64,000 nucleotides of DNA from a virus (lineage: Duplodnaviria; Caudoviricetes), in the IMG/VR virus record IMGVR_UViG_3300027898_000001. One strand, given 5' to 3'. The translations under genes were made by a program, and so were the position numbers. Positions 6,301 to 22,423 of the stretch are shown here, one piece after another. Numbering within the stretch: the first letter of the stretch is position 1; each line of letters starts with the position of its first letter. The notes beneath the pieces were generated by a model. The model ran no database searches. It saw only the letters and a program-made list of their open reading frames with translations, and had not been told where the DNA came from.

Positions 6301-7052
6301 TGATTCGACTATTCAGCGTCATCCTAGCGTTATCATGTAACGCTGCTTCTTTTGCATCTACATTGATTGTGGAATCTGGGGACGCTGCAAGAATCTACGA
6401 CAACACATTAGCTAACTACTACCCTTCCACAGTTCATATCTTTACAGTACGGGACTTCATTTATGATGCCTATGACAACCGTAAAGATACTATCACTGCT
6501 ATCCTAACTGCTAAGAAATACGATAATTTAGTCGTACTGGGATTCGATGACGTGCCAGCTTCTAGTAATCTGACCGTTATTCCTCTTTTCTCCCGAGTTG
6601 ACAACTATTCCACACAAATTAAACGGATTGTTCAGGCATTCGAGCCTAAATCTGCTATACATGTAGTGTGTGATACATATTGTCCAACTCAGCTTGGAGA
6701 AGTCCATCGCATTAAAACCCAATTACATTTAAAGATTTTGTTGTCAGAATTAGAACATAAGGAAAACATCGTTATTATTAACTTGTTACCTTCCTTGTAT
6801 GATTCTGACACAGAGCATTTCATTTTTGGTGACACTATATCAAAAATGTTTATGCAAAATTCAAAGCATTTAGAGTTCTCTATTTTTAGACCAGATTCAA
6901 ACACTGCCGTATCTCTATGGATAGAACCTAAAAATATTGTCTCACATTCAGATAAAATGACAGTTGAAGTAAATCTACAACGTATTACTGTTTTGAATAA
7001 ACAAAACGAAATATTCGAGGCAGTTAAATCTGAGGAATTAAAAATACGATGA
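6300..7052 (+). CDS. Secreted/periplasmic protein, possibly with a substrate-binding-protein-like fold
   Basis: N-terminal signal peptide MIRLFSVILALSCNAASFA and alternating alpha/beta pattern. Fold assignment is tentative. Confidence 0.5.
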   Translation: MIRLFSVILALSCNAASFASTLIVESGDAARIYDNTLANYYPSTVHIFTVRDFIYDAYDNRKDTITAILTAKKYDNLVVLGFDDVPASSNLTVIPLFSRVDNYSTQIKRIVQAFEPKSAIHVVCDTYCPTQLGEVHRIKTQLHLKILLSELEHKENIVIINLLPSLYDSDTEHFIFGDTISKMFMQNSKHLEFSIFRPDSNTAVSLWIEPKNIVSHSDKMTVEVNLQRITVLNKQNEIFEAVKSEELKIR

Positions 7053-15925: not shown

Positions 15926-16723
15926 TCAACTTTCATTATGCACATCCTGATAACTTACAATGAACTTCGCTTTGCGTAACCAGTGATCGGCTAAGCATCG
16001 CATACAAGTGTGAGCAGATCGCGTACAATCACCATCGTGTTCAGCTTCCATCCAAACCATAAAATTAGGAACGCTAACACTACCTATATTATCACCGTCT
16101 TCGTGTGGCTCATCAATCTCATAACTGGCGAGAGCTAATGCAAGTTTTAAGATACGATTATCTTTAGCATCACGATTATCGAGTTGAGACCGTTTAATAG
16201 GATTTTCTTCAGGTTCAAATGGTACTACTATTGGATGACCATTAAAACTTTCAGATTCAGTTATTTTAGGTGTATGTTCTTCGTCAATAATACCTACAGA
16301 AATAAATGTAGTATCACGATCTACGATAACTCTATTTGCTGTTCCTAAATGCGATAGTTTTATTGTAGATACTGTTGACTCAGATACAATAGTAGCACTT
16401 GTGATTGTCGCAATATTTTGTAAAGCACCTTTTCTTAACTCACCGAATCCTGGTGCTTTACACGCAACTACTCTTATGTAACCACGTATCTTATTCACTA
16501 CTAGCGTAGATAACGCCTTGCCTATAATATCCTCAGCAATAATAATCAGTGGACGTTTTGAATTAATAACTTCCGTTAGTATAGGAAGAAAGGGTTCTAT
16601 TTCGTTGAGTTCTCCATCAACTAATAAAACATACGCATTTTCAAACACTACGTTCAATTCAGAATCGTTGTTAATAAAGTAAGGTGATAAGTAACCTTGA
16701 TCGAAACGTGTCTCGTCTATCAT
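15926..16723 (-). CDS. groEL: GroEL apical-domain-only protein fused to a Cys/His-rich C-terminal domain
   Basis: Residues ~1-145 align with E. coli GroEL ~191-337 (FDQGYLSPYF, LIIIAED, ALSTLVVN, KAPGFG, DTT). No equatorial ATPase domain. C-terminal HDGDC-x5-C-x2-C. Confidence 0.9.
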   Translation of the reverse strand: MIDETRFDQGYLSPYFINNDSELNVVFENAYVLLVDGELNEIEPFLPILTEVINSKRPLIIIAEDIIGKALSTLVVNKIRGYIRVVACKAPGFGELRKGALQNIATITSATIVSESTVSTIKLSHLGTANRVIVDRDTTFISVGIIDEEHTPKITESESFNGHPIVVPFEPEENPIKRSQLDNRDAKDNRILKLALALASYEIDEPHEDGDNIGSVSVPNFMVWMEAEHDGDCTRSAHTCMRCLADHWLRKAKFIVSYQDVHNES

Positions 16724-17535
16724 TGCCGTATCTCGTATTTATCAAGAATATGTTTAACAAGAGGTTTATTACTTGGTGTGCGAGTCAGACAATCAAAATC
16801 TATATCAACATCTGTTTTGCATTTCACCAACTTGTAGGACAGTCGCAAGTTATCTAATTGCTCTGATAACCTTTTACCTGTCGCACCCTTAATGTTGTCT
16901 ATATTAGCAACAATATTTTTCAGAGTACCATACTCTTTAATGAGCTTTAGTGCAATTACATCACCAACGCCGTACACACCAGGAATATGGTCAGTCTTAT
17001 CACCTTTCATTGCAAGAAAGTATGTTACTTGTTTTGGTGTTAAGCCTTTCTCTTCCAATAATGATTTCAACGTAGTACGTTTCTGTGCCTTAGTATCAAG
17101 CAAATCTACATACTTGGAAATAAACTGTGCGCAGTCTTTATCGCCAGTTAGAATTGTAAGCTGCATTTCATTTTCAGTGTAGTGCTTTGCAATAGTACCA
17201 AGAACATCGTCGGCTTCAACACCTTTTATATTCAACACTGGAAGTCCAAACGCGCGACATAGTTTGCGGATAATAGGTTTCTGTACCTTTAGGTCGTCTG
17301 GACACGGTTTGCGATGCAGTTTGTAATCGGCATATAAATCGTAACGGAAGTTTCTACTCTCATGGTCAAATGTCACGATTATGTTTTGCTGTTCACGTAA
17401 CAAAGGTTTTATCATGTGATAGAAGAATGTGATAACGCCAGTTGGTTCACCCTTTCTAGTAGTCAATTGGGCTTTGAAACTAGCGTAGTATGCACGGTAC
17501 AAATAGTAGTTACCATCTAGTACTAGAGTGCGCAT
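16720..17535 (-). CDS. 5'-3' exonuclease / flap endonuclease (PolA N-terminal-like)
   Basis: LDGNYYLYRAYY, FD...FR..LY..YK..R, EADDVLGT, TGDKD..Q and GDKTDHIPGVYGVG motifs. No polymerase domain. Confidence 0.92.
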   Translation of the reverse strand: MRTLVLDGNYYLYRAYYASFKAQLTTRKGEPTGVITFFYHMIKPLLREQQNIIVTFDHESRNFRYDLYADYKLHRKPCPDDLKVQKPIIRKLCRAFGLPVLNIKGVEADDVLGTIAKHYTENEMQLTILTGDKDCAQFISKYVDLLDTKAQKRTTLKSLLEEKGLTPKQVTYFLAMKGDKTDHIPGVYGVGDVIALKLIKEYGTLKNIVANIDNIKGATGKRLSEQLDNLRLSYKLVKCKTDVDIDFDCLTRTPSNKPLVKHILDKYEIRQ

Positions 17536-18035
17536 TATTTGACAACCGTTAATGTTGGTTTAGCTGGGAAGTGAGAGTTCTCGAAAAACTCTTTAGATTC
17601 TTTCTTGTTATATTTGGACGCAAGTGGATTAGGAATAATGTATATGGGTTCGCTTGGAGATCCAAAGTTATACTCAAAGTAGAATGCTTTATCCTCAGAG
17701 GGTGCAGAATCACCGGTGCTAACGCCAATAATATTCTCTAATGGCAATACACAGCGGAAAGGAACACCGTTAAATGTTGTGTTGAATGCAATAACAGCGT
17801 TCTCATAATCTATATTGTAGTTCGTCATGGAACGTGTCGCAGCACGTAGCGTTACTTTTTTACGATCTTGTAGGGATTTTGGTAATGATAGTTCGACTGG
17901 AGATAATAGGAGTATTTGGGCGCGCGAGAAACTAGGCTTTCTTGACAATTGTATATGTGGGTCGTAACCCATCATAGACAACATGTTGATGTGGTTTTGT
18001 ACTACTTCGATATTGGTGCAGAACTGTTTTAACAT
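17535..18035 (-). CDS. sspB: SspB-like ClpXP adaptor
   Basis: FNTTFNGVP...LPLENI resembles SspB FNARFGGxP...VPLxAV. C-terminus KPTLTVVK resembles the ClpX-binding tail RPALRVVK. Confidence 0.75.
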   Translation of the reverse strand: MLKQFCTNIEVVQNHINMLSMMGYDPHIQLSRKPSFSRAQILLLSPVELSLPKSLQDRKKVTLRAATRSMTNYNIDYENAVIAFNTTFNGVPFRCVLPLENIIGVSTGDSAPSEDKAFYFEYNFGSPSEPIYIIPNPLASKYNKKESKEFFENSHFPAKPTLTVVK

Positions 18036-18044
18036 GATTATCGC

Positions 18045-18079
18045 CTGTAAATATAGTTAAGTTCATAGTATATTTACAG
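18045..18079. repeat. 11-bp perfect inverted repeat upstream of the sspB operon (operator or promoter hairpin)
   Basis: CTGTAAATATA (18045-18055), 13-nt spacer, TATATTTACAG (18069-18079). Confidence 0.6.
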
Positions 18080-18149
18080 TATTTGTAGAAAATGGTTTAT
18101 CCCCAGAGTACAAACTACTAGCAATAGGATGATGTGTATAACCTAATGT

Positions 18150-18405
18150 TTTCGCTACAACAGTACAGGCAAGGATGCTGTGAGTATAGCTGAACCCTAT
18201 TGTACGCGGTCATTTGGGTGGATTTTTCACTCACCCCGTCATACAACAACTGTGATAAACCTGCGAATGATTAACGGCTCTACGCTGCTCTAATGCAACG
18301 CCTTACAATAAAGCATAAGGTTCGCTTACCGAGTACGTGTGATCCTTCTTAATGCAAACCACCTAGATCACGCAACGCATGTACTAATGCTATCGCTCAC
18401 TTCCA
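18150..18405 (-). ncRNA. Structured ncRNA candidate, copy 1
   Basis: Intergenic. Shares four ordered sequence blocks with 19388..19570. Predicted closing stem GCATTAGTACA/TGTACTGTTGT and internal hairpins. Ends are approximate. Confidence 0.6.
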
Positions 18406-18407
18406 AC

Positions 18408-18773
18408 TCAAGCTATTCTTGCACGTCTACGACTTTCAAATTCTTGGAATCTTGTTGTGTAGAATTCATCGTAATGTTCTTCCAATTTATGGACAGCATT
18501 TTCAATTATTTCTACAATATTTTGTACCTGAATTTTCTTAGATTGTTGTGTTATAGGTTGTTCGTCTAACCAAATCGTTAACCATTCTTTTAGTTCGCGT
18601 GCAACTTCTTTGGCATCATTTTTACACACAACAATATATTTATGTAAGTCTGAGAATACCAAACCTTTAGTGTCACTACCAACACGATGGTCTATGTAAT
18701 ATTCTGTTTTTGTTTCTTTGTGTGTTACAGAAACTGAACCACCATCACGGTGCATTGCTATATAAACTGTCAT
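18408..18773 (-). CDS. Hypothetical protein
   Basis: Co-oriented, overlaps the upstream stop (ATGA). Confidence 0.65.
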   Translation of the reverse strand: MTVYIAMHRDGGSVSVTHKETKTEYYIDHRVGSDTKGLVFSDLHKYIVVCKNDAKEVARELKEWLTIWLDEQPITQQSKKIQVQNIVEIIENAVHKLEEHYDEFYTTRFQEFESRRRARIA

Positions 18774-19108
18774 TCAATATTTCTCGGTTCGTAACAGGTA
18801 ACGTAATCTTTGCAACGATCTGCACACAGATTAAGCATTTTACGGTGATATTCGTTTTCAGTTTTCTTGGCCCATGTAATACAATTAACTGCCAATTCAT
18901 TACAATCTTGTTCTGATACAGATAATCTACCCATAACTGTATCGTAAACAGGTGCACCTATCATACCTAATGATTCACAAGCAATACCACCGCGTATCAT
19001 GTACCGCTTTTTATTGAACTCGAATAATACCGAACCACCGTCACGCACGGTACGAAATTCAGGGTATTCAATTTCTTCATTTTTAGGTAAGGTTATGTCA
19101 ATATTCAT
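18770..19108 (-). CDS. Hypothetical protein
   Basis: Coupled ORF in the minus-strand operon. Confidence 0.65.
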   Translation of the reverse strand: MNIDITLPKNEEIEYPEFRTVRDGGSVLFEFNKKRYMIRGGIACESLGMIGAPVYDTVMGRLSVSEQDCNELAVNCITWAKKTENEYHRKMLNLCADRCKDYVTCYEPRNIE

Positions 19109-19323
19109 TTTGCTAATCTCTTTCTAGCAGAATCGCACAATGCCATCATTTGACTGCGTACGGTAAACCATTCACCTTCCGGTACTCTTGTATCTGTTCT
19201 ACCTGCTAGAGCATACATACGGTTTATATCACGACCTAAGAATAAAGCTCTTTGCGTAGCGCAATGTATTTCACAATAACCGATAAATTCTTCATCAGTC
19301 ATTTCATTATCTTGTTGTGTCAT
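19105..19323 (-). CDS. Hypothetical protein
   Basis: RBS AAGGTG, coupled to the next gene. Confidence 0.65.
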   Translation of the reverse strand: MTQQDNEMTDEEFIGYCEIHCATQRALFLGRDINRMYALAGRTDTRVPEGEWFTVRSQMMALCDSARKRLAK

Positions 19324-19387
19324 AATACACCTTATCTAAGTGAAATTAAAAATGATTGTTCCTGTCACAAATATCTTTCGATAAGTG

Positions 19388-19570
19388 TAGGCTACAGCAG
19401 TTGGGCGGAATCGGAGTATACCGAACTACCAGACATAACAATCTGCGGTTGATTGACGGCTCTGCGCCTTTCGGGAGTAGGATAAAGACGCTTACCTAGT
19501 TGAATGAGGTTGAAACATAAGAACCTAAGTAAGTCCGCATACCGTGCAGTTTAGCTACGCTGTTACAACA
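19388..19570 (-). ncRNA. Structured ncRNA candidate, copy 2
   Basis: Intergenic. GGTAAGCG, CGCAGAGCCGTCAATCAACCGCAG, GTTCGGTATACTC and CTGCTGTAGC occur in the same order as in copy 1. The stem GCGTCTTT/AAAGGCGC uses a G-U pair that forms only on the minus strand. Confidence 0.6.
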
Positions 19571-19633
19571 ACCATATTTCCGAAGCGTAGTCACCATACC
19601 TATGTTTTAGGTGAATGTGAAACTGCAAACACT

Positions 19634-19993
19634 TTAAAGAATTACGTTTATAGCACTAGCCGTATTAGAATTTTGCGTCTGCATAACTGCGATGAACGCA
19701 TCCTTAGGTACGGAATAACAAGTCATCACCAATTTGTTATATAACTTACCTACAACAAATCTAGTGTAGTCGGTCTCACGGTGGTATTGTTGAAAATTTA
19801 GTTCGTACTCCGGATTTGATTGCAAACGTCGGAGAGTTTCATAGCCTAAGATAAGTACAAAACAATTCTTATCTGTGACCAGCTCTTCCAATTCACATTC
19901 ATCGAAATCCATTAACTTATTAGAAGCAAATGGCATGCGAAGTATGCGTTGAATGATGCGTAAATTCGCACCAGCATCTTGAAGTTCCATCAT
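19634..19993 (-). CDS. Hypothetical protein, weakly similar to the capsid-like paralogs 31305 and 36198
   Basis: FVLILGYETLRRLQSNPEYELNF versus FLIIDDATYKSCMDNPHSSLIF. Confidence 0.5.
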   Translation of the reverse strand: MMELQDAGANLRIIQRILRMPFASNKLMDFDECELEELVTDKNCFVLILGYETLRRLQSNPEYELNFQQYHRETDYTRFVVGKLYNKLVMTCYSVPKDAFIAVMQTQNSNTASAINVIL

Positions 19994-20055
19994 AGATCCT
20001 TAGCGTTGCAGTATTTATTATAACGTGTTAGAAAACAATGTACCCGCAACGCACT

Positions 20056-20247
20056 TCATCGCAAGATAGCGATATTCTTTTCTGGAACGTGTTGTGAAAC
20101 CTTACGAGTTATAGGGAATTCACAATCGGCTTCAATGGTATATCTCTGAACACCATTACATTTCTCTACTTCTGTTATTACGCCAGTAGATGTGCCTGAT
20201 TTTAAAATTGTGTAGGAAACTCTATCATTAACGGAAAATTTAGCCAT
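20056..20247 (-). CDS. Small SH3/KOW-like beta-barrel protein
   Basis: MAKFSVNDRV...GVITEV...YTIE pattern. Confidence 0.5.
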   Translation of the reverse strand: MAKFSVNDRVSYTILKSGTSTGVITEVEKCNGVQRYTIEADCEFPITRKVSQHVPEKNIAILR

Positions 20248-20259
20248 GATAGCACCTTA

Positions 20260-20613
20260 CTACACTGTTACAGCAACATCGTTATAACGAACATACTCAG
20301 CCAAAGTGAGAGGTAACTTGGCTTCAATTGCGGCATGATCGAATAAGGTTGCATCGTAACCTGAAGCGGACATAGCGTTCCAATCAATCGAGCTATCATC
20401 GAATGGTAAGAATGTAACAGTATTAGAACCAGTTGTGACTGTTGTACTATTGATAGTTGTTGAATTAATAAACATGCGTTCAAACTCGCGCGCTAACTCT
20501 AGTGAGGCATCCTCAGAAACACAAACTATTGCTGTTTTTGAATGTTTACTTGAGGACTTGAACGCGCTTGTCAACATATTCAATGTACGGCTGCTTCCTT
20601 TTAGTGCTGTCAT
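20260..20613 (-). CDS. Hypothetical protein
   Basis: Coupled ORF. Confidence 0.6.
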   Translation of the reverse strand: MTALKGSSRTLNMLTSAFKSSSKHSKTAIVCVSEDASLELAREFERMFINSTTINSTTVTTGSNTVTFLPFDDSSIDWNAMSASGYDATLFDHAAIEAKLPLTLAEYVRYNDVAVTV

Positions 20614-21020
20614 TTTACTACTCTCAATTTAGGTTTTTGTTTACTGAAAACTCGCATCATTTTAAAGTCCTTAGGATCGAATTCAAATATAATCTCATCA
20701 CCGCTTGATTTAAGCATAGGGATATATTCAACAGGTACTTTAAACTCCGCATTGTCTTCTACGCGGTTAAATGACAAAACACCGCTTTCATAACACATAC
20801 GCATGTTACGTACTGTAACATCCCACAACGGTACTGTTATGTACTCCTCATCAGCATAATCATTTGGTAATACTAATTCTGCGTTTGGAAGTGGGGATGT
20901 TGCATTAGTCCTATCTAAATATGGTTGTTTAGATACCACTAAGACTGGCACCAGATGCAAATCTATAATGCAGTCATAATAGCTACATAGTGTGTATGCA
21001 GTAATACAGGAAAAGATCAT
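20610..21020 (-). CDS. sspB: Second SspB-like adaptor
   Basis: VLPNDYADEEYITVPL...VRNMRM...SFN resembles SspB VPMEYARDGQIVLNI...VGNLEL...RFN. C-terminus KPKLRVVK. Confidence 0.65.
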   Translation of the reverse strand: MIFSCITAYTLCSYYDCIIDLHLVPVLVVSKQPYLDRTNATSPLPNAELVLPNDYADEEYITVPLWDVTVRNMRMCYESGVLSFNRVEDNAEFKVPVEYIPMLKSSGDEIIFEFDPKDFKMMRVFSKQKPKLRVVK

Positions 21021-21068: not shown

Positions 21069-21740
21069 TTATTGAGCACATAGAAAATTCAATGACAGAA
21101 CATACATGCCAGTAACATCCTGTGTAACATACTTATGGTTATTCTGGCGATAGAAATAGTAGCCAAATCCATATACATTTTTAAACAATGGCATAACAGT
21201 GCGACGGAATTGTTCATTGTTACGGAAACCTAATAACTTGGAACAGTGTATATCTTGTGAAAAGATATTAATAGTAATACCATCTTTAGTTCTTATAAGC
21301 TCCAACTCTGCATTGCTTTGCATATTCACATTACGAGCCGAGACTATTAAGAAATCCATAATATCCGCATAACCTAATGCCTTGAAATACTTATCTAAAC
21401 CTTTACACTGTGCTATTAAGTTTGGTACACAAGCGCGTATAGCGGCTTCCGATTTGGTGATACTGCTTGTAAATAGATCAATTATTTCTTGAATATAAGC
21501 ACTTTGACCGTATTTGTTAAAACTAACTATACGATAAAATATTCTGGAGTTATTGTGAAATACAGCAATATCAAACACATTAAGAGTAGAATGTTGTACC
21601 ATAGCGAATCTATGGGTATAACTTATAGCAGTATACACATTACCAGCTTTTAATAGCTCGATGCCGAAATACTTTAGTTTGTTTCTAACGTAATCAACAG
21701 TTAGTTCTTGTGGTGTAGGTTCTTGTCTAGTTAGCATCAT
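21069..21740 (-). CDS. Hypothetical protein, LGY-x4-DF paralog family
   Basis: ALGYADIMDFL and LLGFRNNEQF motifs shared with 21737 and 24824. Confidence 0.6.
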   Translation of the reverse strand: MMLTRQEPTPQELTVDYVRNKLKYFGIELLKAGNVYTAISYTHRFAMVQHSTLNVFDIAVFHNNSRIFYRIVSFNKYGQSAYIQEIIDLFTSSITKSEAAIRACVPNLIAQCKGLDKYFKALGYADIMDFLIVSARNVNMQSNAELELIRTKDGITINIFSQDIHCSKLLGFRNNEQFRRTVMPLFKNVYGFGYYFYRQNNHKYVTQDVTGMYVLSLNFLCAQ

Positions 21741-22423
21741 TTGAAGAATCCTAATTGTAATTGATATACAGGTTTACTATATGGACGTTTCTTATTACTA
21801 GGTACAACTTTAACAGGCGAGTGTGAGAAATAGTTAATACCTAGCACTTTTAAAACTTTGTTTAGTTCCGAATCCCTGTCATAACCTAATGCCTTATAAA
21901 TCTTATCTTCACTGCAAATGGTTACGCCAAATCCATTGTTCTCACCGTCATGTTTAATCTCATTAAAGCTGACGTGTGTGAGTATCTTCTTATCATACAG
22001 GTGTGACATTGTTAAAATGAAATCAACGGCATTTTTATAACCGAAGTCTTTCATATTAGCATCGCCTAAATGTAGAAGGTCAGCGTATCTGGCTAGGTTA
22101 CGCTTGATGTTGAAATACTTTAATGTCTGGTGTTGGTAGTATGCTTTGTATCGCTTGATAGCAGTTTCCACTCTATCTGCGTAAGACGTTTCATCCAAGA
22201 AGCAGCGAATCACATCATGGTACTCATGTATTTTTGATGTGTGCGATATTACCAATTCAGTTCTAGTACCAGCATTCTGAATCAGTATAGATAAAATGTC
22301 TGGAACATACGTTAATGTAAACGTAACACTACTATCACCTACTTCTATATTATATACATGACCTACATGGTGCAATACGATACCCCGTATTGCTCGGTAA
22401 GCATCTTGAAGTTCTACGTTCAT
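21737..22423 (-). CDS. Hypothetical protein, LGY-x4-DF paralog family
   Basis: FGYKNAVDFI and ALGYDRDSEL motifs. Confidence 0.6.
   Translation of the reverse strand: MNVELQDAYRAIRGIVLHHVGHVYNIEVGDSSVTFTLTYVPDILSILIQNAGTRTELVISHTSKIHEYHDVIRCFLDETSYADRVETAIKRYKAYYQHQTLKYFNIKRNLARYADLLHLGDANMKDFGYKNAVDFILTMSHLYDKKILTHVSFNEIKHDGENNGFGVTICSEDKIYKALGYDRDSELNKVLKVLGINYFSHSPVKVVPSNKKRPYSKPVYQLQLGFFK

Follow-up and report, generated by a model that had tools for sequence, protein, structure and literature searches.

Two strongly diverged SspB-like proteins with ClpX-binding-type tails encoded by an uncultured jumbo phage

Phages are subject to host proteases. Whether a phage can in turn turn such a protease to its own ends is the question raised by a locus in IMG/VR virus record IMGVR_UViG_3300027898_000001 (Caudoviricetes), of which a stretch of 64,000 nucleotides, referred to here as the window, was analyzed. 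The window is part of the genome of an uncultured jumbo myovirus of about 260 kb and encodes two proteins that resemble SspB, an adaptor of the protease ClpXP: a long paralog, P0001, and a short paralog, P0002 (Table 1; other P-numbers denote relatives from databases). To our knowledge, no phage-encoded adaptor has been demonstrated to reprogram ClpXP, and the SspB homologs of jumbo phages have so far been annotations only. The analysis described here indicates that this phage probably uses its two SspB-like proteins to steer or block protein degradation in its host.

An earlier note on this DNA had described two open reading frames (ORFs) on the minus strand, with the C-termini KPTLTVVK (P0001) and KPKLRVVK (P0002). 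Their positions, strand, and ends are all as it described them, and the start codons of both are backed by homolog alignment from residue 1. The two proteins share 28% identity over 86 amino acids (BLASTP E value, 7e-07), in agreement with its view of strongly diverged paralogs. It had also proposed that both keep a ClpX-docking-type tail. The window has 575 stop-to-stop frames that are 40 amino acids or longer; an L-x-V-V-K ending is found in just two of them, P0001 and P0002, against 0.016 expected from the amino-acid frequencies. The tails are not due to chance.

Single-sequence searches are insufficient to place the two proteins. P0001 matches the Pfam SspB family (PF04386) with 14.8 bits (E value, 0.031), under the gathering threshold of 27 bits, and PHROG 8945 ("SspB-like") with an E value of 0.018; SspB chains in the PDB are matched in the same register with an E value of about 0.3. 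P0002 gave no match in single-sequence searches of Pfam, PHROG, and the PDB. When a two-sequence profile of P0001 and P0002 was run exhaustively with HMMER over 1.84 billion representatives, 19 further proteins were retrieved (E values, 3e-21 to 5e-4). These relatives come nearly all from Logan or ENA assemblies, carry no protein names, and mostly, with few exceptions, have the C-terminus [L/F]-x-[V/L/I]-V-K. When queried against the PDB, the family profile matches SspB only (E values, 2e-14 to 7e-11), and the alignment reaches through the LRVVK of the Escherichia coli protein. Individually, 12 of the 20 family members match Pfam SspB (best E value, 2.7e-17), and the bridging member P0012 matches Salmonella SspB at 2e-11 (tblastn).

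To avoid circularity, the clade of each paralog was also profiled alone. SspB chains are the only top PDB matches in both cases, led by Haemophilus influenzae SspB for the P0002 clade (five members; E value, 0.008) and by E. coli SspB for the P0001 clade (three members; E value, 0.003). Compared by hhalign to a known-only reference, consisting of the E. coli protein plus five annotated homologs from phages, the P0001 clade scores 97.5% (E value, 7e-12), the P0002 clade 95.9% (E value, 6e-09), and P0001 alone 92.9%. A known-only hidden Markov model (HMM) run on 375 frames of the window ranks P0001 first (E value, 5.8e-09) and P0002 second (E value, 0.31), and no third SspB-like copy was found among these frames.

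A word-indexed search of 5.8 billion proteins with P0001 and P0002 returned the queries themselves only, and few extra members were added when the family alignment served as the query against the same proteins. Nothing was found in scans of IMG/VR with P0001, P0002, P0004, and P0009 or in a scan of JGI metagenomes with the P0001 clade. P0013, a protein of 7,059 amino acids with nine short matches at profile positions 91 to 123, is a probable repeat or compositional artefact and was left out of all alignments.

A structural model shows the SspB fold for P0002, and the fold of P0001 rests on sequence profiles. The AlphaFold2 model of P0002, guided by a 22-sequence family alignment, has a predicted local distance difference test score (pLDDT) of 90.4 and a predicted template modeling (TM) score of 0.81. 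The top 13 matches of this model in a Foldseek search of the PDB are all SspB (probability, 1.00; TM scores of 0.68 to 0.77, normalized to the target). VIA, which is independent of Foldseek, likewise finds the fold of the E. coli and H. influenzae proteins (PF04386; PDB 1OX9, 1OU9, and 8ET3), with a Z-score of 13.2 to 8et3_Z, E. coli SspB in the ClpXP delivery complex (102 of 105 residues; root mean square deviation, 2.4), and of 12.8 to 1ou9_A; the best unrelated chain scores 5.3. Caulobacter SspB-alpha (PDB 2QAS/2QAZ), a diverged orthologue with the same fold, comes after the top 13 in the Foldseek list and is the next-best structural match (Z-score, 8.5). It is clearly more distant, and the window proteins are nearer to the gamma-proteobacterial type of E. 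coli and H. influenzae. The "SspB-like cores" of the earlier note are thus borne out by profile and fold evidence, and we are nearly certain that P0001 and P0002 are SspB-family proteins.

The order of parts is shared with E. coli and H. influenzae SspB: an N-terminal helix, a beta core, a tether, and the C-terminal L-R-V-V-K peptide. In the P0002 model, the helix spans residues 6 to 20 and aligns with SspB helix 1. The window proteins differ from these SspBs in being phage encoded and duplicated, in carrying an insertion and a P-x-E motif, and in sequence, with about 20% identity. Their tethers also differ, spanning roughly 50 residues in the bacterial proteins, compared to 35 in P0001 and 11 in P0002. 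The stretch after the P0001 core is predicted as disorder with low confidence, and that of P0002 runs from the domain end (model residue ~120) to the tail with a pLDDT of about 82. Measured from the conserved P-x-E proline, the tail lies 64 residues away in P0001 and a tightly kept 34 to 36 residues away in the P0002 clade, compared to about 75 residues in E. coli.

In a maximum-likelihood tree, the new family stands apart from known SspBs (97/94). P0002 and four orthologues of 136 to 139 amino acids form one sub-clade (98/96), and P0001 and P0004 belong to a different one (97/93). Since the paralogs fall into separate, well-supported sub-clades, their duplication is old. Judging from these sequences, both forms persist across several uncultured phages. 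The longest contig encoding P0005, which is P0001-like, and the longest encoding P0019, which is P0002-like, each measure 12,258 bp, which hints at a recurrence of the pair elsewhere.

Several traits set this family apart. An insertion of 15 to 20 residues with a P-x-x-D-R motif lies between beta1 and beta2 in both window paralogs and their clades; in the P0002 model, it forms a loop without regular structure (residues 31 to 49; pLDDT, ~78 to 82). P-x-E is invariant in the new family where canonical SspBs carry P-x-A. To follow the core, we used a signature of 39 positions that are invariant among E. coli SspB, pf16 gp18, and FLC4-3B gp94, which is an indirect proxy for the ssrA-binding groove and not an explicit list of ssrA-contact residues. 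P0001 keeps 8 and P0002 keeps 9 of these 39 positions, whereas every tail position is kept in both, and the P0002-clade tail L-[RK]-[LV]-V-K is present in five of five members. P0001 partly retains a strand motif (T-L-R-A-A-T-R compared to V-L-N-I-A-P-R) as well as F-N-x-x-F-x-G. In P0002, V-P-L-W-D-V takes the place of the L-N-I-A-P-R strand, and the less diverged members P0012 and P0018 are canonical in look. Among SspBs, conservation is limited to the dimer interface and the ssrA groove (PMC9963277). Set against this, a fully kept tail beside an eroded core signature suggests that docking was retained and the cargo site changed, and it reads as selection acting on docking and not on the canonical groove.

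Table 1. Positions of the two SspB-like genes, their parts, and adjacent genes in the window
Feature	Coordinates	Strand	Remarks
P0001, long SspB-like paralog, 166 amino acids	17535..18035	-	N-terminal helix, SspB-type beta core, ~35-residue tether, C-terminal tail
P0001 ClpX-binding-type tail LTVVK, residues 162-166	17538..17552	-	Aligns with LRVVK of E. coli SspB (8et3_Y profile match)
P0001 beta1-beta2 insertion, ~residues 31-47, P-x-x-[D/S]-R motif	17895..17945	-	Without counterpart in canonical SspB; from alignments
P0002, short SspB-like paralog, 136 amino acids	20610..21020	-	SspB fold, tether of ~11 residues
P0002 ClpX-binding-type tail LRVVK, residues 132-136	20613..20627	-	Identical to E. 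coli SspB tail
P0002 beta1-beta2 insertion, ~residues 31-49	20874..20930	-	D36-R37 invariant in P0002 clade; from alignments
5'-3' exonuclease, FEN-type	16720..17535	-	PF02739 (E value, 5e-47), PF01367 (E value, 2e-24)
Stand-alone GroEL apical-domain protein, 265 amino acids	15926..16723	-	Residues 3-148 match GroEL 190-338 (PDB; E values, ~1e-37 to 4e-40); PHROG 5725

As an annotation, the phage-encoded SspB-like ClpXP adaptor has precedents in other jumbo phages, and a BFVD fold search finds SspB-fold proteins in many of them. Erwinia phage RAY gp039 was published as a putative ClpXP adaptor of SspB-like type with cytoplasmic localization (PMC10299810). This jumbo-phage homolog of RAY and Ea35-70 has 150 amino acids and a tail, KPTLTVVK, identical to that of P0001; its adaptor role is putative, like that of P0001 and P0002. 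It differs from them in passing the Pfam SspB model (according to a record note) and in grouping with canonical SspBs, apart from the new family (97/94). The Ea35-70 genome has one match to the family profile. The Ea35-70 stretch DPVLDR, considered as a shared family insertion, was rejected, as hhalign puts it on the V-P-x-E-Y strand of SspB and the apparent insertion was a MAFFT misalignment.

Similar tails occur in the homologs of Pseudomonas phage pf16 (gp18, KPTLRVVK), Ralstonia phage FLC4-3B (gp94, GFLSVVK), NCTB (BN7874_154, KPTLSVVK), and phiKZ (gp232, KLTVIK followed by GGKK). Some of these proteins are as short as P0002 (128 to 139 amino acids), and phiKZ gp232 is a fusion of 302 amino acids. 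Unlike the window proteins, they have canonical-type cores (17 to 22 of the 39 signature positions, or part of the reference set) and no insertion, and the family profile finds one copy per scanned genome. NCTB BN7874_154 (LT598654.1, locus 6456-6875) is an SspB homolog that lacks annotation as such. With the annotated start (locus 6528), the protein lacks its N-terminal helix; starting instead from the GTG at 6456 yields a complete SspB-like protein of 139 amino acids.

A pair of SspB-fold paralogs is also found in Aeromonas phage phiA8-29, where the adjacent orf_009 and orf_010 (KY914485.1, 10149-11084; ranks 7 and 12 in the Foldseek search of BFVD) are annotated as hypothetical. Neither has an L-x-V-V-K tail and thus a ClpX-docking module, which makes them a tail-less counterpart of the window pair; moreover, phiA8-29 is a phage of the Ackermannviridae and not a jumbo phage. 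What is new in the window is a strongly diverged SspB subfamily that is missed by standard models and has an insertion and an eroded groove signature, together with two tailed SspB paralogs in one phage.

What could such proteins do during infection? In E. coli SspB, the L-x-V-V-K-type C-terminal module binds the N-domain of ClpX, and it is chiefly through tethering by the tail that SspB gains its affinity for ClpX (PMC9963277). In an engineered setting, fusing an XB peptide to a bait is all that is needed for ClpXP to degrade an untagged target (PMC12373786). P0001 and P0002 would each combine a dimer-type SspB substrate-binding domain, a tether, and a C-terminal L-x-V-V-K peptide. By analogy with what the tail does in E. 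coli SspB, it is likely that their tails would dock on the N-domains of host ClpX during infection. The reading that we favor goes further and holds that both would act as phage-specified ClpXP adaptors, with remodeled binding domains that recognize non-ssrA cargo, different for each of the paralogs. Adaptors with separate specificities are favored because each clade keeps its own core motifs and two copies are maintained; we judge the chances of this reading to be about even. The identity of the cargo and the consequence for the phage are speculative. We consider the structural interpretation (SspB family, fold, and tail) correct and the functional one, drawn by analogy, plausible.

An eroded core beside a kept tail would fit the idea of the earlier note that ClpX is either retargeted or occupied. 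In the latter case, dimers with two tails would act as competitive blockers, occupying ClpX N-domains and displacing the host's SspB along with further adaptors and substrates that depend on the N-domain while delivering no cargo, and phage proteins would be stabilized or host regulation disturbed. The full retention of the tail with the canonical cargo-groove signature largely lost is in line with such blocking, as is the mainly tail-dependent binding of SspB to ClpX (PMC9963277), and the tether of about 11 residues in P0002 offers a geometry less obviously fit for substrate hand-off. For blocking, however, a short peptide would do, yet the clades keep motifs of their own (the P-x-x-D-R insertion, the invariant P-x-E, and clade-specific residues) and two diverged copies are maintained in separate clades, which suggests specific ligand binding. 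In addition, an XB anchor expressed alone in E. coli had no growth effect (PMC12373786). Pure blocking therefore appears fairly unlikely. The groove signature, as an indirect measure, also bears on the idea that both proteins are conventional ssrA-tag adaptors that would boost ClpXP clearance of tmRNA-tagged products of stalled translation during infection, for instance so that amino acids are recycled or tagged proteins are withheld from ClpAP. The architecture is that of SspB, P0001 retains parts of the strand motif and F-N-x-x-F-x-G, and the canonical-looking P0012 and P0018 point in the same direction. Nonetheless, only 8 to 9 of the 39 positions are kept, V-P-L-W-D-V replaces L-N-I-A-P-R in P0002, the insertion of 15 to 20 residues lies beside the core, and two copies would be redundant for one tag, all of which makes this role improbable.

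The tail might also be put to another use, either docking on another AAA+ unfoldase, encoded by the phage or the host, or serving as a self-limiting degron, with an SspB-like domain that works independently of ClpX. Tail-less SspB-fold phage proteins do exist (phiA8-29 orf_009 and orf_010 and LucasX gp196), so the fold is usable without ClpX docking. The tail is nevertheless kept in the roughly 20 diverged members and in the known phage homologs, mirroring the one experimentally defined function of the peptide, and no unfoldase gene was seen within the 64-kb window of the ~260-kb genome. We regard such a use as very improbable. A more far-reaching version of the adaptor reading is that the paralogs form a phage-encoded targeted-degradation system, in which each of them, or a heterodimer formed via the SspB-type dimer helix, would use the remodeled domain to capture a specific host protein and tether it to ClpX for destruction. 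Immunity proteins, antitoxins, and regulators are examples of what the cargo might be, and such a system would be nature's equivalent of engineered XB-peptide degraders; this version strikes us as rather unlikely.

Several points weigh against the adaptor reading that we favor, or against the assignments on which it builds. Taken alone, P0002 does not match known SspBs significantly (hhalign, 14.8%; HMM E value, 0.31), and its assignment consequently rests on family transitivity and fold; the alignment that guided the fold model holds overtly SspB-like members. AlphaFold run on P0001 as a single sequence gave an uninformative model (pLDDT, 38.7). The tether of P0002 is very short and might hamper hand-off to the pore. 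A folded dimer might do no more than offer two tails for avid binding, as would be just as expected of an inhibitor. In addition, the family profile finds no members in PaBG, Lu11, HRDY3, and Y3, nor in five relatives from IMG/VR whose sheath is about 52% identical. As the nearest sequenced relatives of the phage are without the family, the genes are dispensable accessories.

The locus can be viewed as a natural experiment, with two old paralogs, a ClpX-docking peptide that appears to be under selection, and a cargo domain far from the ssrA-binding consensus. If each paralog delivers a distinct host protein to ClpXP, this would constitute a new strategy of counter-defense or takeover, and natural degrader modules for bacteria could be drawn from it. 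Should they do no more than block ClpX, they would amount to protease inhibitors with a simple modular design. Independently of function, the existence of a diverged subfamily of about 20 members shows that SspB relatives in phages are under-detected by the Pfam and PHROG models now in use.

The phage itself is only distantly related to described ones in its structural proteins. Its baseplate hub is 33 to 40% identical to those of Pseudomonas phages PaBG and Lu11, and its sheath is about 52% identical to those of PaBG and some IMG/VR contigs. When queried against 50,697 phage records, the region gave no DNA-level match (megablast), and P0001 and P0002 gave no match by tblastn. The G+C content of the window is about 38%. 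Promoter and terminator scans yielded sites that were no more numerous, or fewer, than in shuffled sequence.

P0001 is followed by the genes for the exonuclease and the GroEL apical-domain protein (Table 1). The translational coupling proposed for these three genes is confirmed at the sequence level by two overlaps, with the P0001 stop overlapping the exonuclease start (TAATG) and the exonuclease stop overlapping the start of the GroEL apical-domain gene (ATGA). Through co-translation with these two partners, a nuclease and a GroEL apical-domain protein, P0001 might be tied to a module for the takeover of protein quality control. The GroEL apical-domain protein has a Cys/His-rich C-terminal extension of about 115 amino acids that has no family match and is unrelated to GroEL.

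Directly upstream of P0002 lie two ORFs of about 225 amino acids each, 21069-21740 and 21737-22423 on the minus strand, which are coupled by overlap. They match no Pfam or PHROG family, and their mutual similarity is marginal (E value, 0.046). Between the two SspB-like genes, the intergenic regions 18036-18407 and 19324-19633 (minus strand) are unusually long and have conserved blocks in common (e.g., GAGCCGT-AATCA--CGCAG). Neither has an Rfam match at an E value of 1 or below, and the shared blocks may represent a repeated non-coding RNA or regulatory element.

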